A stretch of DNA of 64,000 nt. Origin: Psammoneis japonica. Lineage: Eukaryota. The translations under genes and the position numbers were made by a program. Below, piece after piece: positions 279-56,620 of the stretch. The notes beneath the pieces are model-generated. The model searched no databases, had not been told where the DNA came from, and saw only the letters and a program-made list of their open reading frames with translations. The stretch's first letter is position 1. Every line of letters begins with the position of its first letter. The stretch lies in the NCBI GenBank assembly GCA_008632985.1, contig QPGO01000036.1, positions 186,001 to 250,000 on the forward strand. Reading direction: 5' to 3'.

Positions 279-509
279 TGTTCGCACGTCGTTCATTCAA
301 ACGGTAGTAGCTGAGCAACTGACTGTAAAGGAGGAATACCGTTCGTCATCGTAAAAGCTGGGAGCGAGAAAGATCTCGACCTCTGTACAGTCTTGTTGAT
401 AAATTTTACTCAGTGCTACATTCATCATAATTTAGGAACTATGTATAGCAGTTCTATTCTTCTGTTGGCCTGACGGCTTCAGTGTGATGACGAGTTGCTT
501 GGAGTGCAT

Positions 510-16624: not shown

Positions 16625-17049
16625 TCGATGCGCATGACCTTGCGGTCCGCCACACTAACTTCCGCACAGGGCGGGGGTGAATTGAGTGCAACTTCTGTGG
16701 CTAGCTGGCTAGATTAAGCTAATGCCAAGCCCATTGCACAACCAACTGTCCTCAAAGAACTCGTTTGGAGATGATGAAAAGCTAGGAAATGTGAAGAAAT
16801 GGTCAGTTCAAGGCCAATGATGGACAAAAAATGGCCAATCAACACATGGCAAAAACAACGGCTCAATTGAGTTTTTTGCTGGCACACTGCCATCGCTTCT
16901 TCTCGCTTCCGGGGCAGGGACCAGACTGGCGCGCATAGCAGGGTGCCCAGACAGGCCATGTTTGTTCCTTGCCAGGTGGCCAAATCAGTTGCCAGTGGTG
17001 TGCCTCCCCCACTTCAGAGGCGCAACCCGCCCCGCAGCATGTTTGCAGC

Positions 17050-19449: not shown

Positions 19450-19700
19450 GGGGTCACACAAAGGTGAGCAGAGTCAGCATTTGTCCCACCAAGCACATTC
19501 AAAAAAAGAACACACACAATGCTCTCATCTTCTGTGCACTCTTTTCTCTTTTTTGCAGGTGACACTTTTGCAAACCAGTGCAAAAAATGAAAGAAACAAA
19601 GTCGCACACAAAGGTGAGCAGAGGCGCCATTTGTGCCAAGCCAAGCCCACTCAAAACAAAAGACACACAATGCTCTGAACTGTTGCAAGCTCTTTTCTCT
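19450..19700 (+). repeat. Two-copy ~150-bp tandem repeat
   Basis: cacacaaaggtgagcagag…catttgt…acacacaatgctct occurs at ~19455 and ~19605. Confidence 0.75.
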
Positions 19701-24639: not shown

Positions 24640-26010
24640 TTGGTGTCTTCAGAGCAAGAGATCCTTTCTGACGTGAGCAATGAGAGCCTTCCAGACCAGC
24701 ATGGTGCAGAGGGGCTGTTGGTCCACACAGAACAGGGGCAGAAGAAGCAGAGCACGTTCAAGCACCCACCTCCCTCATTGTGCACAGCAGTGCTTTGTTC
24801 CAACTTGACTCAGAGCAGCTTTGGGAAGCGCGCGTGTTCTTTCCACTGATGGGCAAACTGTTCAAAGGTTGCCAGAATCTTGAATCATCAAGGTGGTGCA
24901 GCGGGACAGTTTGAGTGCTTGCGGGAACAAAAAATGCCCGCAAAGAGAGAAGAGCAGGAGTCAGAGAGAGACACAGAACAGAGAGAGGAGCAACTTGGAG
25001 AGAGAGAGAGAGAGAGAGAGAGATGGGGAGCAGAGCACACAGAAAAGAGAAAGCGTGATTTGCAGAGTCCCAGAGAGGTTGAGAGAGGAAGAAAATGAAT
25101 TCAGGGAAATGGCGAGGCAAGAAGAAGATTGATTTTGGCAAGGACTGCAGGCAGCAACCTCCACTTGCTTTTGCTTGCTTCAGTGGTTCTGCGTGGATGA
25201 GTTGAGTCTGGCAGCAAGCTTTCTGACCACATTCAGCTCAGTGAGTGTGAGTGATCAAGATCCTGTTGCTTTTGTGTGCAATGATTGGCAAGTTTTGGGT
25301 GAGCAGCGACATTCTGTTGACAGAGCAGAATCTTCATGGCACCTGCAGTTTGGCACATGTCATGCACAACACGCACCTTTGCATTCGACATTTCGGATTC
25401 AGCTTGAGGGGTTGAAACCTTGAACGCAGACTTGACATTCCATTTTGGACCAAAAAGCACCATTTGTGGTGGACAGTGTGCACTTGGAGTGCAGACAGAT
25501 CCAGTCTTGTTTCTGCAATGAAGCACTTGATGATTTTAACACCTTTGCCAGTTGGAAGGTTTTCTTTGGGATTTCACAAAAACAGCATGGTTGTGTTGGG
25601 AACATTTTGCAGGGCACCGGTGCAGAGAGTTTTCAAGCTCCTGCATGTTCAATTGCGCATGGTGGAAACTTGCCTTTCACACTCACAACATGGCCTTTGT
25701 AATTCAGTGTGTGTTCCAGCAAGCACAGCCCTGTGAAATTCTTGCGTTTCCATCTCATTGTCAACCAGTGCCAACAGGTGCAACAATGCTTGGAATTTGC
25801 AAATTCTTGTCAGCATCCCTTGCTTGCAATGGCTTGATCAAGAATCTGTCAATGTTTCTGTCAGGGTTGAAAGCAATGTGACTTTGTCAGGATGTCATGT
25901 GTGCAGAGAGTTTTGAAGCTGCCAGCTCAAATGTGCTTTGAAAGCTTGCACCTTTGCACCCAACTTGCACAACAGGCTTTGTTCATTCAGTTTCTAGCCC
26001 ACCAAGCATT
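24640..26010 (+). repeat. Dispersed repeat, copy 2, interrupted by a ~380-bp insertion (24829-25206) containing a GA microsatellite
   Basis: Inverted homology to 4720-5750 breaks after gcagctttgggaagc and resumes at tctggcagcaagctttctgaccacatt. Confidence 0.8.
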
Positions 26011-29000: not shown

Positions 29001-30739
29001 CACACAGTGCAGCCAGACAACCCCCACCCCCTTTTCCCACATTGTTGCTGCACTCACAGCAGAGAGCTCTCGCAGCTCTTGGAAAGCTCTCCCAGCATTG
29101 TGCATGCAAGAAAAGATGAAGGGGGGGAAAGAAAGAGACAGCCAGTGCACAGGAAAGAGCAGCTGTTGCCACCACTCTGACAGCTGCTTGCACACCTTCT
29201 TGGCATCACTTGCCTGCACCTGGGCACCAGCCAGCAGATCCCACCCTTGAGCCAAGGCAGGCTGTGTGGTGCTCTGTTGCATTTTTTCTGTTGTGACAGG
29301 CTTGCAACACAACTGCCAACAAAAGCACAAAATTCTCAACCAATGCCCTTCAGAGCTGCACAAATGACAATGTGCATGTCATCAACAGCGTGGGCCTCTC
29401 TCCAACAAACAATGTCTCTGTCACCTGGACAACACAGCTGCTCTTGTCAAGAGTTGAAAAACTTGCTTGATGGGAAGCCTGTGCATTGTTGTCAAGTGCT
29501 CCTTCATTGTGAACAAATGGCTTTTCACAATTGACTGAGTTGGCAAGTGGGGCCAGACTTCTTGAGGAAGTTTGGTCTCACACCAGTGCATGGGCTTTGA
29601 CAAGACTCATTTTGAACTTCTTGGCCACAGTGCAACAAGCAACTGCAAATGAAACATGGCTCATTTTTTTGCATGCACACTCAAGACAATCTCATCATCA
29701 ATTGTTGTTGTTGTTGGCTGGAGCATGCTGACAATTCGATTCATTTTTTTGTCAAACGGGTGAATTTTGCAATTTTGGCTTCTTCTGACAATGTTCACTT
29801 TCTGCCCTGGCTGGCAATTTTTGACTTTTGGCACATTGCTCTTGTTCCACACTGTCACTCTGTTCCTTTGCTCCCTCTGTTCTTTGAGCTGCTGTCCCTT
29901 TGTCTCTTGCAGCAGTCTGTCTTGCACATTGGTGGTCTTGGCTGTGCTGGCATTGCACCTTGTTCCAATCTTTTGTGCTTCAAAAAGAGTCAGTTTTTGT
30001 GACAGCTTTTCTCATTGTGAGATGTGGCAGCAATCCCTGGCAGAACAGCAGAGAAGTTGTCAGCTTGGCATGTTTTCTTTGGTGCATGGCACAATCATGC
30101 TGCTTTTTCTGCTTGCCTGTGTGTGATGTTGCAGCACTCAATTGACTGAGTTTCAAGAAATCAACAAAGAACAAAAGAAAGGCACATCAATTTGTTGTTT
30201 GCTGCAAGCAGCCTGCTCCTGCACCACACTTCTGACCTCTTGTCTTTCCCACAGCTTTGTTTGTTGGTGTGTGCAGAGTCTGGGTTTTGTTGGTGCCTTC
30301 CTGCAATGTCATCATTCTTTGTGCATGCTGCTGCTTGGGTGCCATCCTGCATTTTGTGTTGCTTTGTGTGTGGTGGTGATGTGCCTTTTTGCACTGGCTG
30401 GTGATCATTGCCTGTGTCCTTTTGCAAGTGTTTTTTTTTAACAGCCTTTTGTCACAGGTGTTTTGAAGTTTCAAGTCATTTGAGTCAACCAAATGAATTC
30501 ACTGATGGTCTCATTGCCAGTGCATTTTGGTTGTGAGCTGTCATTTGTTCAGCAGCTGGGTGTTGAAAATTGTTTCAATCAAATGCAGCAGCCATTCACA
30601 TGGGAACAACAACCTTGTTGCTGTTGTGTTCTCAACATGGTTGAAACTTGCAGGGAGGAGGTCAGAAGAAATTGCAGTGGAGTGGACTGCACAGGTGAGT
30701 GTGGTTGCAGACAGAGGCAACTGTCTCCAGCAAGTTGAT

Positions 30740-31740
30740 GCAGACATGTTGAGCTTCCCAGCTTCAGAGCGAAGTGGCCCCATGATGGCACCAGCCAACT
30801 CAACAAGCCACAGCAGGCTGAGAATGTTGGTGGTCTCTGGCAGACCCCAGGTGGGCCCCAGGTGACACTCTGGGAGCTGTGGTCAAGCACTGCTGAGCAG
30901 CAAAGGCCAGCACCGCTGTGCAGTTGTGGTGACCTGTCATGTCTGCCCAGCTAAAAGAACACTTCAAACTCACAACTCCAGAATGAAAAAACACCATGAT
31001 GTCACCAACCAACCTGACAACAACAAGCTGAGAGCATTGGTGGTCTGTTGTGGTTCCCAGGCAATGCTGCAACAACTGTGGTTGAGCAGTGCAAGAAGGC
31101 CTGCTGTCTTGTGTGGTTGTGGCCCCATGTCACCTTGTCACACAGAAGGAGCAGACTTGAACTTCCCAACTCCATGGTGACAGGGCCACATGGAGGTGCC
31201 AACCAATCCAACAGTTGCAGGGTGAGGACGACACCTGTGACATCTGGCAAACCACAGGCAAAGGCCCAATGTCACCTTGTCCTGGCAGCAGCAGACTTTT
31301 GAACTTCTAAACTCCAGAGTGAAAGGACCCCATGGTGGTTTCAACCAAGCTGAAAATGGCAAGCTGAGGGCACTGGTGGTGTCAGGTGAACCCCAGGAGA
31401 GACTGTCAGAGCTGTGGATGAGCATTTTGCAAGATTGATCTGGTGTTGTTGTGGCCCCATGACACCTTGTCCTCAACAGCAGCAGAGACTTGACTTTTGC
31501 AGCAATTCCAGAGTGAAAGAGCCCCATGACATTGCTGACAACAGCAAGCTGAGGACATTGACCATGTCTGGTGGGCCCCAGAGGAGACTTTGTCAACAAC
31601 TGAGGTTTGGTGCTGCAAGGTTGAGCTTGTGGCATTGTGGCCCCATGTGACCATGTCCCAACAGCGCCAGACTTGACTTGCTCCCCCAACTCCAGAGTGA
31701 AAGGACCCCATGACAGCACCAACTGAGCCAACCTGAAATT
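30740..31740 (+). repeat. Tandem array of ~140-215-bp units (~6 copies)
   Basis: aactccagagtgaaagg.ccccatg…caagctgag…gtggccccatg.caccttgtc…gcagactt recurs at about 30750, 30970, 31165, 31310, 31505 and 31688. Confidence 0.85.
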
Positions 31741-33832
31741 TGAAAAGCAATGCACTGGGAATGCCAGAGACATGGAGAGGGTTTTTGCAGTGGCAAAATG
31801 GCTTGAGGAGAATGATGAAGAGTTTCAGCTGCTTTTTGAAGCAAGTTTCTTTTTGTTGGAAGCAGCAACATGAAGAACTGTGACAAGCAGACAGGCCATC
31901 TTCCTTTTTACCCTGATCTAAAACTCAAGCAAGAGTGGATTTGTGAGAGGGCTGGCTGGGATGTGAGCCAGAAATGTGAAACCAAGCTTTCTGGTTCTTG
32001 CAAGCCACACAACATTTGGAGACTTGCAGCCCTTGTCAAGCTTTCTGCCATGGGGCTGTCAAGTTGGCCTTTGCAGCTGATCTTGTTGGCAGCACAGTTG
32101 TTGCAGTGTGTGGCTTCAATTGTTTGTGCTGCTGACCTTGCACAAAGTGTCAACATCAAATGAGTTTTCTGTCACCACCAGCACCTTGGCTGCAGCTGCC
32201 ACTCATGAGTCTGGGTCCCAGACTTGGGCGCTTGGACAACACTCACCCTTCTCTCTGAGCAACAAGCAAATTGGTGCATGCACTTCAACAAGCATGATGT
32301 CCAAACCACCCTCTGCAATCTTCTTTGAGAGACAAAACTGGTGCATTCACTGAGCAACAAGGGAGGGCTGCCAGACAATCACCAGCAGAAATTCTCTGCC
32401 ACAGTCGCCACAGCCAGAAAACAGAGTGCAATGCATGCACATGGAACAGGAGCAACAAAAACACAAAATCAAATTGCAGCAACATTGGCTCTGATGACTT
32501 GGCACCCCAAAAAGTGTTCGCAGCACATTTGTTGTCAATCAACAGCTTCAAAGAGGTGTTGAGTGAAGCAAAACTGACCCACACTGTGGCCTGAGTTGAT
32601 GTTGGAATTTGTCAAAGTGCAATGTTTTGACAAGGTTGAGAGTGGCTGCACAGGCGTTTTTGGATGAGACACAACATTTTTTGCGCCCAGTTCTTCACAG
32701 CGCATCTGGACATTTGTTGTCTAAATTCTAGCACAGCATGCTGAAGGTCATTTTCAGGCTCACTCATCAAACACTTGTGCTCCAGCACCTTCCACATGAG
32801 ATTGCATTTGAGCTCACAACCCAGTGTCCTGGCTCTGCTGTCATCAGATCATGCAGCAACAGATGGGGTCAACTTTGCCACAAATCTTGTTTTGCTCATC
32901 ATTGTGAGCAACTGCCTGCAGTTCAGAGGTGACAAATTTGCTGAACAAACAACAAACAAGACATGGGTTGACAACTTTGATCATCTCCAGACCATGCAAA
33001 AGGCAGTGCAAGCTGCCAAGTTCTTGGAGTTGGTGACAATGACAAATTTTCTTGACAGGGCTAAAACTTGAACAAGAACACTTCTGAAATCTGAATGTCA
33101 CAAAGGATGCTCAAATTCTTGGGAATGTTTTGACAAGTGAGTTGACAACAAATTGCAACCTGGCCATCCAACAAGCCTCCATGTTTGATTCATTAGCTTC
33201 TACCTGTAATCTCATTGAATGACAGTGCCATGTGCTCTTTGATCCCTGTTGTTCCTCTGCTGCAAACAGTTCATTCAGGGTGCTTCTCCACTGCCAGGAT
33301 GGCAAATGTAAACTGCAGTCCTTGCCACTGCAAACAACGTGGTTCTCTTGCAATTCTTTGCATAGCTCCAGCTCATTGGTGGGTCAAGATCCTCATCATG
33401 TGCCTTGTGATCCTCGTCATATGTGCCTGCATGGAGGGACTGCCTCTGCTACGTGAGATGGATGATGGACGACAGTACGGACAGAACGACAACTAAAATC
33501 CATAGATGTGATGCTGAGCGACGCCTCGGAGTGATGCACACATTTCTCAGAACAAAACGATCTCTGCAGAGTTTTTGCTTAACAGAAGCACTTAGTACCC
33601 CACACCAATGACCGTCTAAATCTACCTTTTCAGTCACTGCTGCAGATGGAGCGAACAAGACAAGCCTAGAAAGATCACACTTTTGGCAATTGGAATTCTA
33701 AAGATATATGCTGACGATGCTACAATACTTGAAATTCATCGAAATGTTCAAAATCGATAGTTTTTCCGGAACTACTTGTTTCCAATGCACCATTTATTGC
33801 TAACCCATGATTGAAACTTCCCCCCTTGTGGA

Positions 33833-35095: not shown

Positions 35096-35885
35096 ATGAA
35101 GTTCACTGCCACCGCCTCTGCTCTCCTCTTCGCCGCAAGCGCTAATGCCTTTGCACCTGCTAACACAAACAGCAGATCTTCATCGTCCCTCAACATGGAT
35201 TCGGGCGACCAAGAAATGTCCAAGGCTCTTCCGTTCCTCTCGCGTCCCAAGCTTTTGGATGGAACTCTCCCTGGAGACGTTGGATTCGAGTAAGTCCCCT
35301 TTTGATACGTTCCATGCTAGTTTTGCGATAATCTGTGTGCACAGTAGTCCCTCACTTTTTTCGTCTGGAATGCTCTTCTTTTTAATTAGCCCCTTCAACT
35401 TGGCTGGAGAAGATATGAAGAGTCTGATTAGCATGCGCGAGGCTGAAATTAAGCACGGCCGATTGGCAATGCTTGCTGTTGTAGGATGGCCCCTGGCCGA
35501 ACTCTTTGATGGTCCTCTTGCGAGTGCCGCTGGATTGCCATCCCTATTGACCAATTCTGGATCATCCCCGTCGGTGCTCAACGGTGGACTCGACAAGATT
35601 GATGTCGAATACTGGGCTCTCGTTGTCGCTTTGGCAGGAGTTGTCGAAATTGAAAGCAACAAGATGCAAAAGGAGAAGAAAGACAAATACATACCCGGTG
35701 ACTGCAATTTCGACCCGCTCGGTCTTTTCCCCGAGGACAAGCAAGGGCAACTCGCCATGCAAACAAAGGAAATCAAACATGGACGTATCGCAATGATGGC
35801 ACTTTTGGGATTTGTTGTCCAAGAAGCTCTGTACAGGGTTCCCGTTGTTCAGGAGACTCCTTTCTTTTTCAAGCCCCTCTTCTAA
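35096..35885 (+). CDS. Light-harvesting (fucoxanthin-chlorophyll a/c binding) protein, possibly Lhcz-type; intron 35290-35389
   Basis: Bipartite presequence [57 protein letters not shown]. Confidence 0.95.
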
Positions 35886-37185: not shown

Positions 37186-39242
37186 ATGGATGAAGCCGTC
37201 ACTGACACTTCGAATCTTGGCCTTGAGTTCCTCGTTGTGTCGGTGTGTGACCGTGTGCACTCTGCAATGGCATTATTGCCCGCAAATTTGACTGATTTTC
37301 TAAGCAAGAAGTGCAATAGCAACAGTTCGACTATATCATAGCTGTCGAAGGATACGTAACGAGTGCAGCAAATACCTACAAGCCAGTTTTGATTCTGTCA
37401 AACGTAAAGGTACTCGAACACACGGCACCACTTGCAGCATCGGAAAGACTGTCACTCCAACCAATCAAGTACCAACCCAAGCATGTTCAAGGAGGAAACG
37501 CTGGATCATTTTTTGCTGAATCGCTGGAATCCTATTCAGACGCTGATTTGGCCGGTTCGAATGCGGTTGCGACGTTTGCATCGAAATCCGACTTGGTTCA
37601 CGAGCAACTTGGCGAGGTTTCGAAACTACTCGCACAGCACTCGGCCCACATGACCTTGCACAGTCACGCTACCACGGAGAGCAACAATTCCAGTCCAGAA
37701 TCTTCAGTGACAAATTACATTGTGGCCGTCAAGGAGTTCTCATCTTCGCAATTGGACCGACAAGAAGCAAGTTTAGTGACCCACATTGAGAGGGCGCAAA
37801 AGGCTGAGGAAGTCGTTCAACGCCATACGGCAGCATTGCAAGCTGCAATTAGCTACAAGGGAGACCTAACACCCGAAATACTTTGTCAGTGGCATTCGTT
37901 ACTCATGAGTGACGGAAAGAATAATGACGCGGGAAGGTTTAGACAAAAGGCTGTACGAGCAGGTCGTACTCGTTTTGCTCCTGTGGACCAGATTCAGACG
38001 CAAGTCGAGAAACTCTGTCTTGGCGCACGGACGTTGGCTTCTCGGCTTCGGCACAAGAGTGAGGATAGCGAAACTTGTTGTCTTGACAAGATTACGTTTG
38101 TTACGATTGTAATGTTTGCTCTCGTCGACGTACACCCGTTTAGCGACGGAAACGGACGCATGGCACGAATTTCCGCCAATTGGGCACTTTCCAAAGTCGG
38201 GTTCCCCTTTTCGATACAGTTATTTGCGACGCGAACTCAACGTCAAGAGTACCTTCAAGCGCTGCAAGATACAAGAAGAAACACGCGATTGGTGATACGT
38301 GGTAACGTTGGTGACAAATCTCAGGCCTCTTGTGTTCTTAACGAGTCTTTTTGTTCCGTGGGACTCATGTTGCCGGTGGTCAGACTGTTGCTGGACCGCG
38401 TGTCCAAGGCATGCCATGAGTTGCAAGAAGTCGTCTCGTCAAAAAATCTGTTGGTATCGGAAGAGGCAGAAGCAAGAGCAGCTCGACGATTTCGGGAGAA
38501 GGCAGCAGAAGGGAATTGTATTATCTGCTTTGATGAAAAGCCAAACATTGCAACCTTGTGCTGTGGCAAAGCTGTTCATCTCAATTGTATTGCACAGTGG
38601 CTATCGTCGAAAGATTCCTGCCCGCAATGCCGAGCACAAATGCCCACAATGGAACGTGTTGCGCCTGCGGCACCTCCGCCAATAGATGAGCAAGCTGAAA
38701 CTACGACGGAATTCGAGGTCGGCTTTGATGATACTACGACGGAGGATTCATATAATGAAACTACAGTTGATGACCATTATGACCATACGACGGAAGAGGA
38801 GCTGGAAATTCCAGTGGATGTTCAACATAGTGATGTAGAAGAAGAAGAAGAAGACACCACAAGCGACCACTCTACAATTGTTGTTGATGACGGCGAGGAG
38901 CCCGACGCCGAGGACGACGATGCCAATAATGATCATTACAGTACCACAACAGACGACGAGACAATGATTGTTGAACAAGGCACAACCACCGTTGATGAGA
39001 CGACGACAATGGACGATGCAGAAGACGACCACCACGAAACAACCACAACCGACAGCTTCGATTCAACAACAGAAGAGGACACAGAAGCAGCCTCGCCACC
39101 GACCCAGCAACTTCATCCACCCATTTGCAGCCATCCCCACTGCAGAAATCGATCTGCTCTAGGATGTACTAACAATCTATGTGGCAGATGCTGTGTCCTT
39201 GATGGCTATTATCGCTGCGATAGGCACAGTCAAAATTATTGA
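37186..39242 (+). CDS. Fic-domain (AMPylase) / RING finger / acidic tract / SHI-STY-like Zn finger fusion protein; first exon tentative (37186-37242)
   Basis: Canonical Fic motif HPFSDGNGRMAR. RING CIICFD…CCGKAVHLNCIAQW…CPQCR. D/E/T-rich linker. C-terminal CSHPHCRNRSALGCTNNLCGRCCVLDGYYRCDRH. Confidence 0.85.
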
Positions 39243-39292
39243 TGATACCTCAGTACGGTAAACATAGCTGACTAGATGCACGCAACCATAAT

Positions 39293-40075: not shown

Positions 40076-41510
40076 CTTGGCTAACCCTTATCGGCTGCCA
40101 GCTTAGCTGCCGGCGGAGTTGACAGAACTTTTAACTTTTGTGATCAATCCTCTCCTGTCCTCTCCGCGCCGCTTTCCGTCCCAGCTCTGTGATGGGTTTT
40201 GGGGGGGTTAGTGACTCCAAGAGAGGGGGGGAGGGGAGAGGAGAAAGAAGGAGGAAGAGGGGAGAAAGAAAGGGAGAGAGGAAGGGGTTGCGAGTGCAGC
40301 GAGCTTGATCTATAATGTGGAAGTGGTTTTGAGAGCAATTCTCACAATTCTTTCTCCATTTTCGCAACCCGATGTGTCAGATCTCCGGGTGACTCGCATG
40401 TTGAAGTAAATTCGTGCGAGGCACTGACACGGACATTGTGGTGTTGAAGTACTCATGGTATGATTTCTACGTAGAAATCTACGTCGTGTCAGTCGTTTCC
40501 CTCCGACACAACACAAAAAAATCGACCATGACAGCCACAAGAGCCGGCAGTCGACATTGCCGCCGTCACTTGTGCTGCTGCTGTACCAACAAAGCACGCA
40601 TTACAATTCTCTATGATAAATGAATATGTGAAAAGAAAGGTATGAAAAACGCAAAAAATGGATGAGAAATGCCTTGGCACTTTTTCCATTTGTAGAACTC
40701 GTCACTCACCTCTTGTGTTGCAATTTCTGTTCGTTCTTGACAGATTGAAGAGCCCTCCTTAAAGCTTAGAGTATTTTGGCATCCCTCTTTCTATGGTTTG
40801 TATTGAAACCATTGTGGCTCCAGTCTAATCTTCACCCGTCGTCAATGAGCGTTAGCTAGCCATTGGAGCGGTGTTTCAGGATTATTGGAAATGGTGCTGC
40901 GAGGGGCGTTGCCGCAGGCGCTATTGAAACTCGATTTGAAGGGATTGACAGCCATGTGTTGGTTATGGTTGCGGTTTGTGTCGGTTGGTAATCTACAATC
41001 TACCACTTTTGGAAAAGTCCGTGTATAAGCGGCAGACGAGGTAGCCCTCGTCTATAAATGACACGGGCTACTGCCGAGGTTGCTGACTGCAGCAGCGCCT
41101 CGGTAATTTTTTTCTGCAATGATGTTCATGTGGCCCCACCTCTGAACATTGAGACGGCCAACGAGAGCCAAGGGGTGGCTCCCCGGTGAGGCGTTGACTG
41201 GTGCTTCCAAGGACGGGAGTGCCTTCAACCGCCGCAGACCCGAATCTCTGGTGCGATAGGGTTCACCTGCCCTTGAAAGGTGGTGGTTGGGTGTGGTATT
41301 GTGATGAAGTATGTGGAGGACACAACAACCAACAGTTATAGAAGTGTGGTAGACAAGAAATAAAAAAGTGAATTCACATAACTCATGGAAACTCAGCTCT
41401 GTTTCGAAAACAATGCTGTGCGTCTCTAGGCTAGATCGCTTCTAGCAGCTATCTCACGAGAACGTCAACATCAGTAGCAATACATAAAATATACCTATTA
41501 ATGATAATAT

Positions 41511-44500
41511 CTACCTCCTTGACTGCTGTCTCTTTGGGCAATCCTTAGAATGTGCGGGTCGACCTCTTGGTCGGCACCCCGCCACACTGTAGCTTTGCTG
41601 CAGCTTGCATTGTAGGAAGACAGGACAACAGTACGGGTCAATGTCCTGCTTCCTTTGATCCCGTATCGGATCATTAAGAATTGAAAGAGCTGGTTGCACT
41701 TGATGTGGAACAGATGGGAGGGCTGCACTCATGCTCGATGCAAAAGCAAGCTGCTGTGATAGGGTGCTTCTCATGGCCTGCAGCATGTTGAACTGCTTCT
41801 CGACTTGAACATGAGCCGCATTAAGCAATGGAGTGTCATCCATACACACAGGTTCAACCACCACCTCGGGAGCCATCGCAATTTCCACAACACCACATGT
41901 AGGTTCAACGGTTGTCGCCGCTGCGGTTTCCTCGTCGTCACGGTTTCCAGCTTCTGATCTTGTTGTTCGCTTGTATGGATTTACGACCGGTTTTGTCCCA
42001 CAGAGATTGCACATACATCGATCTGTCTCGGGGTGTGGAGCAATTGTTTCATTTCTGGCATTCTGCTCCAGCAGGTACTGGGACAAGAAACGCTCGCCGG
42101 TGTCCCCCTCGAGTTCCCTCACATGCGGATATGGTGCTTTCTTCCCCTTCTTTAATGCAAGGTTGTTGACTTCAATTAGATCAAGTACATTCCGATGAGT
42201 AACCACACCCCGAAAGTCATATGGAATCTTGGCTCGCGCCGTTGCATCCATTTTCTCGATTCGCTCCTTCTCTTCGATTGTTTCATTGTACAAAACTAAT
42301 CCCTCCAAAGTAAGCAAGTCCATCAATGAATGTCTCATTCCACAATTTCCATAATGTGCCAGTGAATCGTGTGCCTTCTCCAATTTGGATTCGGGTCCTA
42401 GTGGCGTTCGCCACTTCACCAGTTTTGCTTTCGACCGCAGGGACGGCGCTACAGGCCAGCACTGCTCCGACTTCGGCACTGGAGTGTCCAATCCCTTCGA
42501 GGTTTCTTTAGCATTCAAAACTGCATCCTTTGTGTCGGTTGTAAATGGCGACAGTCCACTGTCTGGATCTAGACGCCCTCCAGCAGCGGGGGCTCCGTCA
42601 GAGGCAGTACACTTGTATCGAGCAAACCAATCCTCGAGCAACGTGAGCCTTTTCTCCAGCGGGTGCCTCCAGAGACGAATGCATTCCTGGTAGTGCTTCC
42701 ACCTTGAAGAGTGTATGATGTCGTGTGTCTCCTCATCAGAATGCTTCTTGTTGTTTAGCGTGCCATCCTTCAAGGCTTGTATCACAGCTTGGCGGTCGGA
42801 CCATTCGGCATATGATGCGGTTGCTTTGAGATCACTGACAGCTTGCCAATAATCAGCATGTTCTTTTCGGAGCGTTCTTGCAATTCGGTGCATCCAATGA
42901 AAGAGCCCAAGGAGACAGATTGTGTTCATTCCGAATGTCGTCTTCCACAACTCCGACTTGTTCGGCCAGGTGTCGCTGCAGTGGAGTTTTGGGCGTACGT
43001 TCTTTCGCCTGGCAAACTGTTCTGCCGCGTGAGCAAAATCTTTTGCTTCCAATGTTGGGGTTGGGCAAGCGGTTCCCACCTGCCCCTTTTCGTTGCACAT
43101 GGTGAACAGGCCTGCTGCTCCGCCTGCTTTCTTTGAGCAGTTTTTGAGAATTTGAAAAGTGTGGTCGGATGCGACGCTCACGGCGGCTCCAACCATCTGC
43201 AACAATCTCGTGCACCTGTCACACGAGGACGTGTCAAGAGCCGTCAATTTCGATTTGCCAGATTCGTCATAAAGATCAAGAAGTGCTGAGGGTGATGGGC
43301 TGCACCCGCCCATCCAATCCTCGAAAGACACCCACTCTTCGCTTTTGTCGATGGCTCGGCAGTGGTGCTCTTTCTGGAGGTCCACGAAATGGGCGGCTCG
43401 CATTTGGTGCAGCATGTGCGAGAACTTGTCCCCATTTGCGTGCGTGACAATAAAGGACTCAAGGAGTCTTGCAGTTTCCTTGGTGAGATGCCACTTGTTG
43501 CTTGCACTAGCATGCTCAGGCAATGTTGGACATGCTGACTGCAGGCTTTTTGGCAGCTTGTGCAGAAGTCGACCGTCGTCACCCTTGCATCGAATTTTGC
43601 ATTTGTTGCATTCGTGCCACATTGACACCGCCACACGCGTCTTCCCGCTGATGCAATGTGTTGGTGTCGCCCCACCATGTCGAGCAAAGTCCGTACGATC
43701 ATGAATCATTTCCCCGTCGCACTCTCCGTCAATGCAGGAGAGATAGATGTTAGGACAGTTCAGCTCCCAACAAACGATGCACACTGTCATGCCTTGCAGC
43801 TGATGGCAGCAACAATCAGGCGGTGAAGTGCAGTCATCCTTGGGAACTTGAAAAGACATTGCACCAGGAGGAAAAGCACCATCCTTGACCTCCAGAATCT
43901 CATTGAGCTTGGGGCTTTTTGCTGCAGCAACAGGACACTTGTTGCTGCCTTGCTCGAATCTCGGCTTGACAGAATCCAACAGACAACTGACAAGAGCACT
44001 CGCTGCAGCCGGGCACTTCGTCCTCTCCTCTGAGTTCTCACACTTTTTCACGTGTGCTCGAATCTCTCGTTTCAAAGTCTCAACCGAAAATTTAGCATCA
44101 GTGGCCGACTTGTGGGTATTCTCGGCGCGCTCCATGGGGCCTGCAGCATCAGCCACCCCCGAATTCACCGGCTTGCATGTGTTGGCAACACCTGGAGGAG
44201 GCAACACAGCTTGAGCTGCAGGTTTCTGTTTTCCAAAATGGTCTCGTATGGTTGACACTCCCTTTTCTGGAGCATCCGGAATCGTGTTGTTTGTTTCGTG
44301 AAGCTCTTTGTCACGTCGCTCTGCATCCATGGTGGCTTTGGTGACGTTCACTTGCAAGTGCCTCTTTGAAAATTTGCATGTGGGATCATGGCCATGATGA
44401 CATGTAGGACCTTTGTCACATCTCTTGCATGTCTTCGTTCCGTCGTCTACTCTTGGCACCTTGCGCCCACTAAAATCGCTCTGATGCGTCCGCTTCTGGC

Positions 44501-44642
44501 GTGTGTGCGCTTGGCTTTTGCTCGTTTTGATGGAGCCTTTGCGTTTCTGGGATTGAACTCCCATGTTGCTAAAGAAAGGATGCAGCTGCCGCTCTGCAGC
44601 CACTTTTGTTGGAGCAGATTCTTCGGTTACGTCCGTCATCAT
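41511..44642 (-). mobile_element. DDE transposase-like ORF (MULE-related / DUF6729-type), 1043 aa, partly hypermutated at TpA
   Basis: Motifs SDHTF (D1), NEKGQV, SDTWP (D2), LGLFHWMHR (MULE-like xxH) and SKLEKAH…LEGLVLYN (E). N-terminal CxxC-H-H-C and C-terminal Cys/His clusters. Element termini were not identified. Confidence 0.72.
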
Positions 44643-46398
44643 CGAAGCACCAGTAGAGATTTACTTTTCTCTCTCGTGGGTTTTTTTTGTGAGAGAATTT
44701 TTCTCATCGCGTGAGAAGTCTGTGTTGTTGTGATTTTCCGTGGCGCGAAAGGAAGAGATTGTCGGTCTCCGCATCATTCTGATTCTTGTGTCTGCTTTTG
44801 GAGAGCTGTCTCAACCTCCTCGTCCCTAAGTGATTGCGTCAGATTTTCCAAAAAAATGTTAATTAATTGATCGGAAAGTCGAGGACTTTCCGAGAGTCTC
44901 CTCTAAGTAGAAATCCCAAATGCTGAATTCTGATTGGCTCTCGTAGCGCCATTCCTAATCCTCCCTGCGGACACGTGTGCTGTAGAAATTAACCCCCGTT
45001 TTTAACCAAATACCCACCTCGATCGACTAACAGTATACAGATACGAAGTTCATCACACTTTTGGGGGCCTAGAATGGGGGTGGACGTTAGTTACTTGCCA
45101 ATCACTGAATGTTGACTCTCGCACTTGCCCGTGTAATAAAGGTGCTCCACGAAAAGTTAGTTCTATTTTGAAATACCAGATACCATGAACAATACATACC
45201 TATTACAATCTCGCAAGACATCGGTTTAAAGAGTATGAGACCGATAATGCTCATATCTTGTGTATTTTGTGGCTCTAGAGCGGGGGTCAAAGTTGGAAGT
45301 CTAGCTAATTCTTCCAAAAAATTTGAGTCGAGTGGTTCATGCGGGATTCAAGACACGTGACTCACCTTACGTGAAGGGAAATTGACCCTTTCTCGACAAC
45401 GAGATTAGAAGATGATAACATCAACACAAGACCTCTTTCATGGCTATATTCTATTCTCTAATCCATGGCTGGCCTCGTGACAACTATATTTGACCTCTTT
45501 CATGCTATAGATAGGCCAAGTAATCCATAAAAACTCATTACAGGCAACACACTTCTGTTTTCACATTTGACATTTGTGTCTTTGCGATCAATCTAGAGTA
45601 GATACGAGCAAGGGAGGAGCTCTATTCACTACTATTTATCATTCTATAGAATGGAAGCATCAGAATAATATTGTCAACGTTGTTTGACTGCTTTTTTCTT
45701 GAACCGTACGCCAACTTCATTCTGCATTTTCACTGCCATCCGCCCGACTCTCCCCCATTCAAGAATACTTGGCTGAATGCGTTACAGTTGCTTTATCAAA
45801 GTCTTATAAATATTCGTCTGTTCAATACCATTGATCAAATGGGATAGATGATATGACGACGACGTTGGATTCGTTCATGTGCTCATGCTAGGAAAGACAA
45901 CAAGAATTGTCTGCGGCGGCAAGAGAGTTGAGTGAGACAACAAGTGGTGAGCCTTGGACATGTTGATAACACAATTTTGATTTTAAATTTACTTGCCTTT
46001 TTATAAACTCGGACTTTAACACATCGGGGTCCGAAAATCCGGCAAATGGTGAGTTGATGCGTTGTGTGCATGCAACATGGCGTCACGACAAAGCGAAGCG
46101 GTATGTTTCAATATTTCTCGCCAAAATGAACGTCTCCGAATGGACAATTACAACCGTATATCAATGAGGGTCTAATAGAGCTTCTGTTGTAATGGTCCAA
46201 AAAACGACGAATGTTTAGACACCTTATCTACCGCGTCAATGTCATCGTCGGCTCCGGCTCCGGCGGGTTTTTGACAATTTCTCCGTGTTGTCACCACGGG
46301 GATGGTCTGTACGCTCATCCGGAGCGCGCCGGCCATGCCAGTTTGAAGTTACAGTACTGTACGTACAGTTTAGTAGAGTATGGTAGGCCATACCCAAC

Positions 46399-46441
46399 AA
46401 GGAACCCGGATCCAAGGCATTGCCTTGGATCCGGGTTCCTT
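46399..46441. repeat. Perfect 43-bp palindrome (21-bp arms, 1-nt centre)
   Basis: aaggaacccggatccaaggca-t-tgccttggatccgggttcctt. Confidence 0.95.
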
Positions 46442-47302
46442 TTCGGCACAATAGAGCGCGCGAGGCCCTTTTTCTTTGAGTCTGTCCGCCATCAAAACTT
46501 CCCGTGCTTTTAGTAGTGCGAGAAAAAACAGAAAACAGCAACCAACCATGGAGAATACATCGTTTGCGAAGGCGTATGCATTCAAGTCTGAGTTGGTATC
46601 ATAGCAGTAATCTCTCTTATGGCACTGTGTAAAGGTTATGGTAAGTTGGTATCAACGGAGACTTGCAACGACAAGGCTATTTTTTGAAACTTCAACTGAC
46701 AGCACGTTTTCCCTCGTTGTTGTTGCTTCCATACCGTCGGACATTGTTTGCAGTGGCCAAAATTCATGGCATCGTGTAGTGTAACAATACTTCATCAATC
46801 TCTCAAGCGCAACTCGCCCATCATGCCTGCAGCACGGAATTGACGACGTATCTGTGTTGTGAGGAAATGAGCGATGGCGAAAGATGGAGAGCGTCGACAG
46901 CAATGCGGGGCGCTAACATAAACGGCGTTCCGAGTTACAGCAATCCCTCTATACTAAATCAGTTTTACAATATTGCATCAAAGATTTTCTCTCACTCCGT
47001 CTTCGCTTCAGACGAGACCGTCCTTGGCATCAAACGTTGGCAGTTCAATTTTCTCACAGTGTTCCCCTAATCCACTACTTCCAGTTGAGCTGTGATTCAT
47101 TACTCCATTTGCATTCCTTGTAAACGAGTTCCCTTTTACTCGCTCAACTAAAGCGACTCGAGGTGGAGGAGCATGCGACACTCGAAAGCCGAAGGGCGAA
47201 GCAAGGCCACAGACGTAGCCCTACTACTCTCTAGAGAGACCTCCCAGTTGGGAGTGGGCGAAGGCTGGAAGGCGGCGGGCCAGGAAGCATACCGGTACCT
47301 GA

Positions 47303-49670: not shown

Positions 49671-51522
49671 ATGCGTTTACAACTTACCGATGAAGTCTGG
49701 AAAAAGCTTGAATGCATGGGCATTGTTTGGGGCGAGACGGTGGATCAGAAGCTGCGAGCCGACCTGGACCGCGCCGTGGCGAACTTTACGCCTAATAATT
49801 ATTACTATTTTCCTCCTGATGAGCTCTACGATGCTTTGATGGACCGCCTTTCGCATCCGAATCCACCAACTTCAGCCAGAGAAAGGAATGTCTACTTGCT
49901 TGAAGGTTTCCATCCTCAGGACAACGATGATTTTTACGATGGGCACCTCAACACTACCAACGCACAGGATCGCAAGACGTGGTACAAACATTTTGTCAAA
50001 CGTGTTCTTCCACACCTCAGTGTTCACACAGACACTGAGGGCAAGTATAGATTGCTGTACAGGAATCCGCAAGACCATCGTATCTTGGCGTACAGACACG
50101 AAGCTTACAACGCAACATATGTTCTCGGTCGCGCATCCTGCTTGGTGGAACTCTACCTTTTCTGTGTTGGACACTCCGCAACACACATCTTGGCTGAAAA
50201 CAGCCAATTGAGGACCACCCACGCATGCGGCAAAGAGTTCCTTAAGATTTTGATGAATAAGGTCATGATGAGCTCGGGAGGAGCGGTCGGGGAACTTGGA
50301 CTTGGCATCTTCGTGCCGTCTAAGTCTTTCTTTGTTTCCAAGTTTCACAAGTCAGCTTTCGAGCCGAGTGGGCCGCCGAGTGTGCAGCGGAGCGTGCAGC
50401 CAAACGTGACGCCTGCACGTCAGCATCAAGGCCCCAATGACGAGGTTTTCAGGGGGGCGATGGGCCTTTTACATCAGATGAGCATTGAAAGACAAAAAGA
50501 CGCTGATGCCGACAAGGAATCCGCTCTGGCCTTAAAGGTCAACGCTCAGGCCTCAAGGGAACGGGGGGCACAGAGAAGAGAGGTGACCGAGATCCTCAAA
50601 AATTTACTGTAAGTCTTTGTGCTTGTTGTTGCATCATTCAGAGTGCTGCTCACTCACGCTTTTTGTCCCCAATGCGACACCCCAGCACCCCGCAGAGCAG
50701 ATTTGGCACTCCTCCCGGTCAAGATGTCGAGGATGAAGACGATGATCAAGGCCACAATGAAACCAATGAAAGCTTGCGATCATCGTTTTTGGTAATGCAG
50801 GATTCCATGCAAGCTGCGGATGATGATGACGCTTCGGCAGCTGGCCTCAATGCCACCGGTGATGCAATCATGCTTGGTGCCGATTGGTCAACGAGCCGCC
50901 GGCTGCCGACAGCTCTTTGTTGTTGAACAACAGCTCTTCGTTGAACATTTCTTTTTCTTCTGATGGAGTGCTTCCTGTGGCCCAAGGGCATCGTGCGGCT
51001 CAAAGGACGGATCCCAACAACTCCTTTTTGAACACTTCGCAGGATTCTAGTTTTACTTGTGGAGCGCGTCCAGCAGCTCAAGTGCATCCTACGGCTCAAG
51101 GGCCTCCTGGTACCTCCGTGTTGAACAATTCACAGGGTTCTCTTTTTTCATCTGGAGCACGTCCTGCAGCTCAAGCTCCGGATCCCAACAGCTCCTTGAA
51201 CACTTCGCAGTTTTCTGCATCTTCTTTTGGAGCGCCTGCTGCAGCTCAAGGGCCTCCTGTGGCTCAAGGGCCTCCTCCTGCTGCTCAAATGCGTTCAACT
51301 GCAACTGTGGCTCCTGCGGTTCATGTGCCGCCTGTGGCTCAAGGGCCTCGTGAGGCTCGACTGACGATCAAGGAAGTGCAGAAACGTATTCGTGCTGCTC
51401 CCTTAGCGGATGGAGAAAAGCAAGAACTTCTGTTTAAAGCCCAATTGAACCCTCGAAATGCGTTGAAGGCTCTTCAAGCAGCCATCGCGTCCAAAGAGTT
51501 GAACGCGGATGGTAACCCCTAA
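49671..51522 (+). CDS. Hypothetical protein with AQGP/LNxSQ repeats; intron from 50609, apparent 1-nt deletion at ~50884
   Basis: The 313-aa ORF ends at donor GTAAGT and continues …TPQSRFGTPP…GAD[L]VNEPP… to a stop at 51522. No recognisable domain. Confidence 0.55.
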
Positions 51523-53639: not shown

Positions 53640-56620
53640 TTATTTTTTGGTGCACACAATGTCCCCACTTGTGCACAGATGGTCGCTGCATTAAACTCCA
53701 CATGTTTGCACCAGGAAAATGCACCTCCAACCTGTCCAGCAGGTGTGAGAAACATTTCATGCACGAGAAAGAGTTTCGCAAAGACAAGCAGTGTGGCACT
53801 CATCGATTGACGTCACGTGCACAGCTGGCAGAATCAGCACAAAGTTTTGCACCAGCATTTGACAAAGCACCAAAACAAGCAGCGCACCACTTGTGAAACA
53901 AGATGGCTTTTCTGACTGCTGCAATCTCACACCGGTGGTCAAAAAGATGATGTTCTTCACCGCTGCAATCATATGTGGCTGTCCCTGGTTCATGATGGAT
54001 GGGTGACAGTGCACAAAGCATGTGCACCACACACCAGCAATTGGTCGCTCCCTGTTTTTCCTGTTGTTACGGCACATTGGCGAATCTTGAAAGCATGGGA
54101 AAAACAAGTTGTGACATGCACAGCAGTTCTCACCACAAGTGATGATGAGTCATTGTGGCATGAGTCCCTTCATGGGCATGCTCTTGTGGCTTGAAAGCCA
54201 AATGTTCAAAGCACTTGACAGCATGGTGGTGGCGGAGAGTGGATTGAGCAAAACAGAGAGAACACCAACTGTTGCACAGTGCAGTCTGTGAAGCATGGCT
54301 GCAGAACATCTGTCATGTGTGACACTCTTGCAGTTTGCGTGCTCTCCTTGTCTTTTTCCTTGAATGTGGTCTTCTTGCACAAACTGAAGCAACTCTGGTT
54401 GGCTGTTCTGCCGGAAATGTCTCTGTTGCACAATTGCATGGATGGTTGCAAACATTCCTGACACAGAAACAATGGCGCCACTTGTCCCTCAATGATGATG
54501 CTGGTGCATCAAACAACACATGAAATTGCTGCACCCATGCTGTTGCACTCACTCAGCCAGACAACCACACCATGCCCAAACATCATCATTGCAGACAAGG
54601 TCCAAACACAAGTGCAGCCAAAGCACCTCACTTGACTCCCACAGTGCTGGCAATGGTGGGCCAATCTCAAACAAGCTGCATGTCCAAAATCAGCAAAAGC
54701 ACATTGCACGAACATTAAATTGATGCCAACACACACAACGCAAAGTCTTGTTTTGACAGGGTGGCTCACCCAATGGAGGGGATCAGCCTCAGGAGGGCAT
54801 GCACATCTGGGGAGCCCATTGACATGATGTTTTTTTGACTCTGGAATGCTTGACACTACACTGCGCATGCACCCACTGCAAGGTGTTGAAGATTTGCTTT
54901 GGCGGGCCATGAATGCCAAAAATTCCCAGGGTTGGCCAAGGGAGCATCTGGGCAGCTGTCAGAACACTGGCACCAAAGATGCTCCAATCATGGAGGAAAT
55001 GAGCACAATTTTTTGTTTCTTGGATGACTTTGATGGCCTCCAGTGCAGTGGAGAATGAAAAAGGGGGAGGCGGCATGGTGAAAACAATTGATCACAAAAT
55101 GCAGGAGACCAGCAACTTGTGGGAAGTGGGGATCCAAGCATCCGGTGGTGGCACAGCCCCAGAGAAGAACCTGTGTTGTCCAGCGGGAATCAAGTGGAAA
55201 CAAGGAAAGTGGAGTTGCATGAAGATGGATGAATTGAGTTGCAACTTTGGCACAAAGGGCCCAAACAGAGAACAGCAGCTGACCCAACAAATGGGTGTTG
55301 ATGAAACAGAGAGAGAGTGCTGGGTGTTCAACTGGTGGCCAGTGGGAATGACTGGACAGAGGTCAAATGCTTGGGCTTGGTGACTGAAGCATGGGTGGAG
55401 AAAGCAAGGGCTGGCCACCAGTTGTCTCAATGCTGTCAATGGCCCCTGTCCTGTGACTCACATGTGTGACTTGTGGCACTGCAGTGAAAAAATTGTGCGT
55501 GTTGAGTTGCAGTTGTGTGCATCTCACGGCACAGTGTCATGTTTTGATGTTTTTGGGGGTGTTGTTGTTGCTTGCCCTTGTCTTGCTCACAGTCATTCAT
55601 TTCATCTCGTGTTCTGGAGCAAGGCATTGGTGCCCCCATGTTTGCATTGTTGATGCCTTGTGAGCAACATGGGCTGAGCTGTGGATTGTGGGATTGACCT
55701 TGGCAACCAGCGCTGCTGATCAATCTGGAGTGTGTGGGGAGCTGCTTTTTGTTGTCAATGAAATTGTTGGTTGTGCGCAACAGCTGGACTTTTCAAAACA
55801 CCTGGGTTGGCTTGCATGCAACAATTTGGGCTGATGTCAGGTGTGTGATTTGTTTGATCATGATGTGTCTTTGCAGTTGAGCATGACCAGCCTTGCACTC
55901 ATCCTCATTGTTGGGTGTGCTGGGAACTGCTTTTGTGTCATTGATGTGCCGGTGCAATGGCTGGCCTTGGAAATTGACAAAGATGCCTGGACTGGCTTCT
56001 CTTGTGTGCAACAGCATTGGACCACCATGATTGTGTGCTTGAGTTGAGCATGATCAATCTTGCACTCGCCCTCATTGTTGGGTGGATTGGAGCCACTTTT
56101 CTTGCGTCATTGCTGTGCAATGGCTGACCTTGGAAATTGACAAAAATGCCTGGAATGGCTTTTGCGCAACAATTTTGGACCATTGATTTGTGTTTGATTT
56201 GTTTGGTCTTGCATCCTTGTGGTTGAGCATGATCAATCTCATGCTCATCCTTCTTGTTGGGTGCATTCAAGCTGCTTTTGCATCATTTGTGTGCAATGGC
56301 TGGCCTTGGAAATCAACAAAAATGCCTGGAATGGCCTTCACATGACACTTTTTGACCATCATTTTGTGTTTGATTGGTTTGGTCTTGCACTCCTCTTGGA
56401 GCTGAGCATGATCAATTTTGTGCTCATCCTTGTTGTTGGGCATGCTGGATGCACCCCCTTGTTGTTTGCACACAGCGGCTCTGCTTGGAACTCAACAAAA
56501 CACCTGGTTGGGCTTTTGTGCAACACTTTTGGTTTGTTGTTGTGTGTTTGATCCATTTGGTCATGCACCCTTGTGTGTGCGCTGGTCGAGAGGAGAAGTT
56601 ATGTCAAAACGAATGACACT
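53640..56620. mobile_element. Degenerate TpA-depleted domain D
   Basis: Very few TA between ~53700 and ~56600, with TG/CA excess. Flanked by TA-normal DNA. Confidence 0.65.
55780..56530 (+). repeat. Tandem array of ~165-180-bp units (~4 copies)
   Basis: tgagcatga.ca…ctcatcc…tgttggg…gtgcaatggctg.ccttggaaat..acaaa.atgcctgga recurs at about 55878, 56045, 56224 and 56403. Confidence 0.85.

Follow-up and report, generated by a model that had tools for sequence, protein, structure and literature searches.

The question raised by the stretch of DNA analysed here, 64,000 nucleotides of a contig from Psammoneis japonica (GenBank assembly GCA_008632985.1, contig QPGO01000036.1, positions 186,001 to 250,000; referred to below as the window), is how a long and intact open reading frame (ORF) came to be depleted of tyrosine in its first half while remaining open throughout. 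The ORF lies within a multi-copy element, and its product is predicted from its fold to be a DDE transposase. An earlier reading of the letters alone, the initial annotation, had described it as a transposase caught in the course of mutation, with tyrosine codons turned into cysteine and histidine codons by the conversion of TA into TG or CA. In our analysis, transitions from TpA to TpG or CpA (A:T to G:C) probably explain the tyrosine-poor half of the ORF. All positions are those of the window, and the coordinates of the features are collected in Table 1.

Tyrosine is encoded at residues 300, 458, 598, 611, 651, 676, 764, 785, 808, 838, 856, 890, 1004 and 1018, that is, three times within the first 600 residues and 11 times within the last 443; the 2 against 12 given in the initial annotation correspond to a cut at residue 597. 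Cysteine and histidine follow the opposite trend, with 32 and 31 residues, respectively, in the first 600 positions and 14 each in the rest, and the peptide motifs that had been quoted as rich in these residues are all present in the translation. At the level of dinucleotides, the ratio of observed to expected frequency (o/e) in the 5' 1800 nucleotides of the ORF is 0.16 for TA, 1.59 for TG and 1.39 for CA, as opposed to 0.46 for TA in the remainder. Counted in plus-strand coordinates, positions 42850-44642 hold 16 TA against 329 TG and CA, which differs both from the adjoining positions 41511-42849 (37 against 224; Fisher p 6e-5) and from three gene-bearing control stretches of the window (921 against 3009; p 3e-20). 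The depletion is patchy and does not coincide with the gene: bins of 200 nucleotides contain 0-4 TA in the patch, 4-7 in positions 41601-42800 and 9-17 in positions 44801-46400. On the left, closely spaced TA end at 42811/42850, and the right edge is placed at about 44662/44827, with dense TA again from 44827. Within the patch, the codons TAC, TTA and CTA do not occur at all, and the junctions between codons are affected as well, with T|A found 9 times, T|G 61 times and C|A 71 times.

The composition of the patch was compared with that of related proteins, of which 13 homologs (28-38% identity) were found by a word-indexed search and 893 by an exhaustive search. In an alignment of the ORF with the 13 homologs, tyrosine is the residue of half or more of the homologs in 28 columns; there the ORF has histidine 7 times, cysteine 7 times, tyrosine 5 times and another residue 9 times, and the codons at the 14 cysteine and histidine positions are without exception CAY or TGY. 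When only columns with at least 70% tyrosine are considered, the ORF carries cysteine or histidine at 10/18, while the homologs do so at 0-3 columns each and at 10/247 together (Fisher p 1.5e-8). The homologs thus carry tyrosine and not cysteine or histidine at the columns in question, in agreement with the expectation of the initial annotation that an aromatic residue had once stood there. This holds for 14 of the 28 majority-tyrosine columns, and not for the motif TVCIVC, whose C288 and C291 stand at leucine and aspartate columns. Similarly, of the changes read from leucine to proline and from isoleucine to threonine, P527 (codon CCA, leucine column) and T569 (ACA, leucine/isoleucine column) agree with the alignment, whereas C526 and T528 in the motif TACPTP are not one-step products of a TA change. 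The change had also been placed in the 5' half only; cysteine or histidine is found at 10 of the 15 majority-tyrosine columns in residues 1-598, where a single column keeps tyrosine, but also at 4 of the 13 in residues 599-1043 (H634, C654, C728 and C1012), where four keep it. Columns with tyrosine in 13/13 or 12/13 homologs are among those changed (C502, C555, C728).

Other public members of the family show the same feature to a varying extent. The mean share of cysteine and histidine at conserved tyrosine columns is 0.06 over 144 scored members, which include three database proteins with 7/8 (P0089), 7/9 (P0113) and 7/16 (P0072) such columns. Together with P0079, P0080 and P0029, these proteins carry cysteine or histidine at 38-88% of the conserved tyrosine columns, with a tyrosine content down to 0.3%, and all six look like stop-free translations of hypermutated copies.

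The direction of change can be read from closely related copies. The comparison set consisted of 79 family loci from metagenome contigs, including short-read SPAdes ("NODE") and Joint Genome Institute assemblies. One of these loci has a glutathione-reductase-like gene as its neighbour; every named relative of that gene comes from a diatom, with Seminavis as the top match at 84%. In a metagenome contig, a piggyBac-like transposase gene (DDE_Tnp_1_7, E 4e-23; L025, positions 239-1699, minus strand) lies beside a family member. Over 74 family loci, with TA o/e values between 0.24 and 0.67, tyrosine makes up 1.1% to 5.7% of the residues and is more frequent the higher this ratio (Spearman 0.86), and the content of cysteine and histidine falls (Spearman -0.70). 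In pairwise comparisons, only isolated differences were counted, and those adjoining another difference were set aside (2, 5, 2, 2 and 201 in the pairs L031/L055, L030/L065, L020/L021, L019/L021 and L016/L029, respectively). In L031/L055 (97.6% identical, 1567 columns), the isolated differences number 36; in 21 of them L031 has TA where L055 has TG or CA, the reverse does not occur, and the others are 7 CpG-type changes, 3 other transitions and 5 transversions. As a rough proxy for the rate, 21 of the 54 TA sites had changed, compared with 15 isolated differences of other kinds over the 1567 columns. The TA-type differences, given for the two directions, amount to 15+6 of 26 in L030/L065 (with 3 CpG-type changes, 2 other transitions and no transversion), 12+3 of 30 in L020/L021, 8+6 of 26 in L019/L021 and 74+12 of 337 in L016/L029, which is only 82% identical. 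In the four pairs of about 98-99% identity, they make up 50-81% of the isolated differences. The codon changes that had been predicted in the initial annotation, TAY to TGY or CAY, ATA to ACA or ATG and GTA to GCA, are seen directly in these pairs and in one direction only. From L031 to L055, 25 codon changes include tyrosine to histidine 4 times, tyrosine to cysteine twice, isoleucine to threonine twice, isoleucine to methionine once and threonine to alanine 3 times, and from L016 to L029, 256 changes include tyrosine to cysteine 17 times, tyrosine to histidine 6 times, isoleucine to methionine 8 times and valine to alanine 5 times. No change from cysteine or histidine to tyrosine was seen in the copies compared. 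Judged from these alignments, the same process acts on other members of the transposon family in other diatom-derived assemblies.

The base that follows the changed adenine matters. With six close pairs pooled and TA taken as ancestral, the share of changed sites is 62/519 (12%) before C, 50/533 (9%) before T, 15/580 (3%) before A and 8/454 (2%) before G (p 7e-14), and no clear preference was found for the base at -2 of the changed adenine in the same six pairs (p 0.07). The target is therefore 5'-TAY-3', which in frame is exactly the tyrosine codon. Independent agreement comes from the TA that survive in the window, because YTAR is a context unfavourable on both strands: it accounts for 42 of the 85 surviving TA in the three strongly depleted blocks described below and for 160/921 in the controls (odds ratio 4.6, p 2e-10). 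The patch itself retains 18 TA, and the 5 of them that stand in YTAR are not a significant excess. The changes at tyrosine columns of the window ORF are consistent with the same rule: of the ten sites in columns with at least 70% tyrosine, three of the four that follow a pyrimidine became cysteine, and the six that follow a purine became histidine 4 times and cysteine twice. The events are also clustered, with 9 within 170 nucleotides and 4 within 50 nucleotides in L030/L065, at different places in each copy. The patch in the window copy is a property of this copy and not of the composition of the family, for the difference in TA share between the N- and C-terminal parts has a median of +0.025 (N-terminal part richer) over 60 family loci, and the window copy, with -0.108, is the most extreme. 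A transcription-coupled targeting of 5' ends in the manner of AID was considered as a general rule and rejected, since across these loci it is the 5' part that holds slightly more TA.

Beyond the ORF, the window was scanned on a 1-kb grid with the cut-offs of a preprint on the alga Bigelowiella natans discussed below (a Rho of at most 0.43 for TpA and of at least 1.52 for CpA+TpG). On this grid the window has two states. The gene-bearing stretches mostly have a TA o/e of about 0.45-0.9 and a CG o/e of about 1, while 25 of the 64 one-kb windows pass the cut-offs, most of them in the consecutive runs 3001-8000 (5 windows), 17001-33000 (16) and 54001-57000 (3); the transposase window 43001-44000 (0.11 / 1.55) passes as an isolated one. 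The three strongly depleted blocks (Table 1) together have a TA o/e of 0.00-0.22, TG/CA of 1.5-2.0, CG of 0.03-0.77 (mostly <0.5) and a G+C content of 0.44-0.55. In the 16-kb block, TAA and TAG together occur 80 times and TGA 807 times, compared with 305 and 293 in an 8-kb control. This block is the saturated end-state of the same process, and at least three blocks in the window are saturated. A Pfam search of 70 stop-free segments of the three blocks gave 0 matches, and since no Pfam domain is left in them, the transposase ORF is the one site in the window that can be read against homologs. CpG is affected as well: CG o/e is 0.03-0.46 in 22 of the 23 one-kb windows of the blocks and 0.77 in the window 7001-8000, and it is about 0.7 in the transposase patch. 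Two repeat-directed transition processes, CpG to TpG or CpA and TpA to TpG or CpA, seem to operate side by side, so that pyrimidine-purine steps all end as TG or CA. Another isolated window, 50001-51000 (TA o/e 0.28, TG/CA 1.36), overlaps an ORF of 313 amino acids without a Pfam match and may be another partly mutated patch. The neighbouring host genes are spared, as the one-kb windows that hold them (JmjC/cupin, light-harvesting protein, histidine phosphatase and Fic-RING) have a TA o/e of about 0.47-0.69.

How the patch probably arose can be outlined as follows. About two thirds to three quarters of the TpA in the patch of about 2 kb have probably been lost through A:T to G:C transitions. 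An event on the coding strand turns the tyrosine codon TAY into the cysteine codon TGY, and one on the other strand turns it into the histidine codon CAY; the same transitions also alter ATA, CTA and GTA codons and NNT|ANN junctions. An enumeration of all sense codon pairs gave 0 cases in which TA to TG or TA to CA turns a sense codon into a stop, as the initial annotation had maintained in its contrast with repeat-induced point mutation (RIP) of fungi; TAA and TAG stops are removed. Since no stop is ever made from a sense codon, conserved residues are lost from a frame that remains open, and the window copy, intact as its ORF is, is most likely a dead gene. The agent could be a locally acting DNA adenine deaminase with the motif 5'-T-A-Y-3', aimed at silenced or repeated DNA. 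An enzyme of the TadA/ADAT type would turn adenine into inosine in DNA, and the inosine would be copied as G. The preference for a pyrimidine at +1 recalls the natural tRNA substrate of TadA, which has UAC, while ADARs prefer a 3' G. We give a mechanism by adenine deamination roughly half the probability of the transitions themselves. The data show the direction of change, its restriction to one dinucleotide, the preference for a pyrimidine at +1, the patchy distribution and the location in repeats, whereas the enzyme, the signal that directs it and DNA rather than RNA as its substrate are inferred. The most far-reaching proposal, that diatoms possess a RIP-like genome defence of opposite chemical direction, in which a TadA/ADAT-type adenine deaminase acts on chromosomal 5'-TAY-3' and, in patches of 0.05-2 kb, goes on stripping transposons of TpA down to the last one, is put forward tentatively and at somewhat less than even chances.

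Several observations weigh against this explanation. Not all pairs of copies follow it: TA-type differences are only 4/26 in L015/L042, where 13/26 are CpG-type, and 33/164 in L024/L057. These two pairs are dominated by CpG transitions or ordinary substitutions, and the process is unequal across copies and genomes. The ancestral TA states of the window ORF are deduced from homologs of 28-38% identity, without a close copy, and among 40 of about 700 copy-to-copy differences, 6 lie in the patch, of which only 3 are TG or CA in the window and TA in the other copies. At conserved columns, with changes of tyrosine to cysteine or histidine excluded, 41% are changed in the patch and 26% elsewhere, a ratio of 1.75 as against 0.43-1.55 in 13 controls; F296C, L288C, V526C and G576C, for example, are not one-step products of a TA change, and other TA-derived changes account for only part of the excess. 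An older hit on the segment, or a repeated one, would fit this excess, and so would a mosaic origin, in which recombination or gene conversion joined a heavily TpA-mutated 5' part to a less mutated 3' part, the mutation process being the same. The higher divergence of the patch is what an older history predicts, its left edge is fairly sharp, with the TA spacing going from about 40 to about 150 nucleotides near 42811-42996, and the joints 40193/44993 and 41538/43931 in other copies of this multi-copy element attest to rearrangement. However, the local clusters of events in L030/L065 indicate that patches need no recombination, and the 3' part has been partly mutated too (4/13 tyrosine columns), so that we regard a mosaic as unlikely, though deserving attention. 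A patchy hit and a recombinant mosaic give the same half-and-half picture as a copy in mid-mutation.

The transitions themselves, as distinct from their agent, would look alike under another chemistry. A modification of thymine in 5'-RTA-3', for instance to 5-hydroxymethyluracil, which mispairs with G, yields an identical pattern, as 5'-TAY-3' is 5'-RTA-3' on the opposite strand and the attacked base is indistinguishable from the sequence; this also weighs against the deaminase, as does the number of strand-coordinated runs of events (11 by hand count, about 11.5 expected), which lends no support to a processive single-strand deaminase. The saturated blocks lack most CpG, pointing to base-modified, silenced chromatin, and 5-hydroxymethyluracil in dinoflagellate DNA favours TpA; we know of no thymine modification in diatoms. 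In a variant of this idea, an ADAR-like enzyme edits RNA that is then copied back into DNA, but of the four bases that can follow the changed adenine, G is the least favoured (2%), which speaks against an editor of the ADAR type given its 3'-G preference, and the element is a DNA transposon without a reverse-transcription step. Such chemistries we consider rather improbable, in about the same degree as the mosaic. Far less probable is an artefact in which modified TA (and CG) of silenced repeats were miscalled as TG or CA by a long-read base-caller and left uncorrected, the real gene keeping its tyrosines. The depleted blocks consist of repeats, in which polishing works least well; TA and CG, the two palindromic pyrimidine-purine dinucleotides, are both lost from the saturated blocks; the three sequencing runs listed for the window, none of them recorded as RNA, are from a single sample and may have supplied the assembly itself; and all contigs compared differ from the window at several patch positions. 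On the other side, the run's contigs agree with the 2226 bases of the window's unique flank throughout (0 differences), and the family copies from short-read metagenomes show the same directional change of TA to TG or CA and of tyrosine to cysteine or histidine; their short-read origin makes an error of long-read base-calling an unlikely source of the phenomenon. Their trinucleotide preference, moreover, matches the context of the TA surviving in the window, and the process in B. natans was, according to the main text of the preprint, observed as de novo mutations in Illumina data (10.64898/2026.01.13.699255). The least probable explanation is ordinary divergence, in which the lineage would have evolved cysteine- and histidine-rich N-terminal motifs, such as a zinc-binding module, without any special mutation process. 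Some cysteine and histidine residues are indeed conserved throughout the family (C345, C348, H385, and CxC...C around residues 876-881), and the closest homologs are only 28-38% identical. However, invariant or nearly invariant tyrosine columns (Y502, Y555, Y728) have changed, TA was lost at synonymous sites and codon junctions too, the patch runs about 150 nucleotides beyond the ATG, and the family members span a range from unmutated to more heavily mutated than the window copy, with tyrosine content following TA o/e.

Table 1. Positions of the ORF, its element, the TA-depleted regions and neighbouring features in the window.
Feature	Position	Strand	Basis or characteristics
Transposase ORF, intact	41511..44642	minus	1043 aa, TAG stop; ORF list and translation
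TpA-depleted patch, about 2 kb	~42850..44800		Codons 1 to ~598 plus ~150 nt upstream of ATG; TA count per 200-nt bin
3' part of ORF	41511..42849	minus	Milder TA loss, yet also mutated; TA o/e 0.46
Presumed catalytic triad	42390..43166	minus	D493 (43164-43166), D557 (42972-42974), E751 (42390-42392); all three kept
Multi-copy element carrying the ORF	~40200..46400		Ends approximate; contig word depth
Saturated block	17001..33000		TA o/e 0.00-0.10, TG/CA 1.6-2.0, CG 0.03-0.31; 48 TA in 16 kb
Second strongly TA-depleted block	3001..8000		TA o/e 0.05-0.22
Third strongly TA-depleted block	54001..56000		TA o/e 0.00-0.05
Light-harvesting protein gene	35145..35885		Intronless
Fic-RING ORF	37389..39242	plus	617 aa
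ORF without Pfam match	49671..50612		313 aa
Inverted pair	40358..40377 / 46019..46038		20 nt, 90%
Near-perfect palindrome	46394..46446		26 nt, 92%, 1-nt spacer

The identity of the product was approached by several searches. Pfam gave no family for the ORF at E <=1 except the irrelevant PIN_TASOR (E 0.12), and among the 14 family members DUF6729 was found in one (E 0.0058, below its cut-off) and MULE in none, while a profile search of PDB sequences gave nothing relevant (a single irrelevant match, E 0.03). In a protein atlas, the closest clusters were DUF6729 (score 0.96), with Mutator/MULE further down; no paper on DUF6729 was found in the literature. An AlphaFold model of residues 260-900, built from an alignment of 84 sequences, has a predicted local distance difference test score (pLDDT) of 93.1 and a predicted template modelling score (pTM) of 0.91. 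The top Foldseek match of this model is the transposase of ISCth4, a member of the IS256 family (E 2e-4), and a second structural alignment to this transposase gave a Z-score of 12.2 and a root-mean-square deviation of 5.3, with 343/402 residues aligned; retroviral integrase cores are matched with a Z-score of about 9 over model residues 226-581. Residues D493, D557 and E751 (model D234, D298 and E492) are invariant in the 14 and in the 84 sequences and lie within the RNase-H-like core. They are presumed to be the catalytic DDE triad. Since the Pfam and PDB profile searches were uninformative, the identity is taken from the fold search, which supports an IS256/Mutator-type DDE transposase whose family has no curated Pfam model; IS256 is akin to the eukaryotic Mutator elements. 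The term transposase used in the initial annotation is thus backed by the predicted fold and not by a Pfam match.

The repeat context of the ORF was derived from the contigs of one sample, the sole one that contains the window. These contigs cover the unique flank 38001-40226 at a word depth of about 60 and positions 40001-46400 at 590-4060, from which a copy number of roughly 15-65 in the diatom genome follows. The two joints mentioned above show that internally deleted relatives of the element exist. One contig of the same sample omits 2392 bases within the ORF (41538/43931) and represents such a copy. The depth is highest, at 3290-4060, at the element end 44800-46400 and about 950-2080 over the ORF; on the basis of this depth and the joint 40193/44993, abundant non-autonomous derivatives without the transposase gene probably share this end. 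The inverted pair listed in Table 1 is the sole, weak candidate for a terminal inverted repeat and lies off the depth-defined ends (about 40200 and 46400), and the palindrome is located exactly where the depth falls to the level of the flank. A second copy of the element or of the family was not found within the 64-kb window, either with blastn or with tblastn and 9 homologs. Among the neighbouring genes, the named relatives of the light-harvesting protein gene are found in diatoms only, with 65-78% identity, which supports a diatom as the host, in line with the initial annotation. The Fic-RING ORF, in which Fic/DOC (E 2e-14) and a RING finger (E 3e-7) form an unusual pair, adjoins the transposon and shows no TA loss.

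The targeted mutation of mobile DNA is established mainly in fungi, by RIP, and in animals, by APOBEC and ADAR acting on retroelements and viruses. The window copy is useful in this respect, as it is partly hit while its homologs are still recognisable, and it provides a codon-by-codon signature, a patch size and a TAY preference, the last of which narrows the search for the enzyme. Annotation is affected too. Because TAA and TAG are removed and no stops are made, mutated repeats yield long ORFs, which gene callers report as proteins, and such ghost ORFs may often lie behind the tyrosine-poor, cysteine- and histidine-rich hypothetical proteins catalogued for protists and metagenomes. If the proposal of a RIP-like defence in diatoms is true, public protein sets are seeded with these stop-free, tyrosine-less, cysteine- and histidine-rich ghost ORFs, and, together with the chlorarachniophyte case described below, TpA editing directed at invading DNA would be a widespread or repeatedly evolved form of immunity in marine protists.

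Compared with known systems, the protein itself resembles IS256 and MULE transposases in the ISCth4 fold match of residues 260-900, the invariant D, D and E and the atlas clusters DUF6729 and Mutator/MULE; it differs from them in that the ORF has no Pfam match and the MULE and DUF6729 models barely touch the family. The mutation process shares with APOBEC3 (C to U), ADAR (A to I) and AID the clustered, context-specific transitions on invading nucleic acid in patches of kilobase size or smaller. However, the base affected here is A in TAY, in contrast to C in TC or CC or A before G, the preferences generally attributed to APOBEC3 and ADAR, the target is a chromosomal DNA transposon and, unlike AID, no 5'-of-gene rule applies in the 60 family loci. 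With RIP of ascomycete fungi, the process has in common that dinucleotide-specific transitions riddle repeated and mobile DNA and that the strong skew is confined to repeats. RIP as the process acting here was rejected, given a TA o/e of 0.00-0.16, TG/CA of 1.5-2.0, a G+C content that is not lowered (0.44-0.55 in the blocks) and the impossibility of sense-to-stop changes: RIP turns CpA/TpG into TpA, makes the sequence AT-rich and creates stops, whereas the diatom process destroys TpA, raises CpA/TpG and G+C and makes no stops. RIP is a functional counterpart with opposite chemistry.

The closest parallel is found in mutation-accumulation lines of the chlorarachniophyte B. natans, in which de novo mutations from TpA to TpG or CpA were reported in integrated giant-virus and virophage DNA (Mettrop et al., bioRxiv preprint 10.64898/2026.01.13.699255). 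As far as its main text goes, the preprint describes 124 TpA-poor clusters genome-wide, with DDE and reverse transcriptase domains enriched in TpA-poor coding sequences, and proposes adenine deamination by an ADAT2-like candidate for the TpA signature (10.64898/2026.01.13.699255). Judged from this text, both cases share A:T to G:C changes at TpA only, the decrease of TpA and increase of CpA and TpG in clusters of 1-kb windows, the targeting of foreign or mobile DNA (here a DDE transposase in a multi-copy element), the local and irregular action and the sparing of host genes. They differ in the host, a rhizarian chlorarachniophyte there and a stramenopile diatom here, and, by the same text, in the target, a single-copy hypermutable region of a nucleocytoplasmic large DNA virus as against a multi-copy DNA transposon, and in the evidence, as the mutations were seen as they arose there and are deduced from sequence comparison here. 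Trinucleotide, tyrosine, stop codon and diatom are not mentioned in the main text of the preprint, to which this statement is limited, since the supplements might list extended context; a full-text literature search found no report of TpA hypermutation in diatoms. Relative to that main text, the TAY preference, the protein signature of tyrosine changed to cysteine or histidine, the stop-free consequence, the patch size below that of an element, the host lineage and the target are new. A TpA-specific process that, going by the preprint's main text, was first reported in 2026 in one chlorarachniophyte has its full signature here in a diatom transposon family, and with it in another algal lineage that is unrelated to the first and ecologically dominant.

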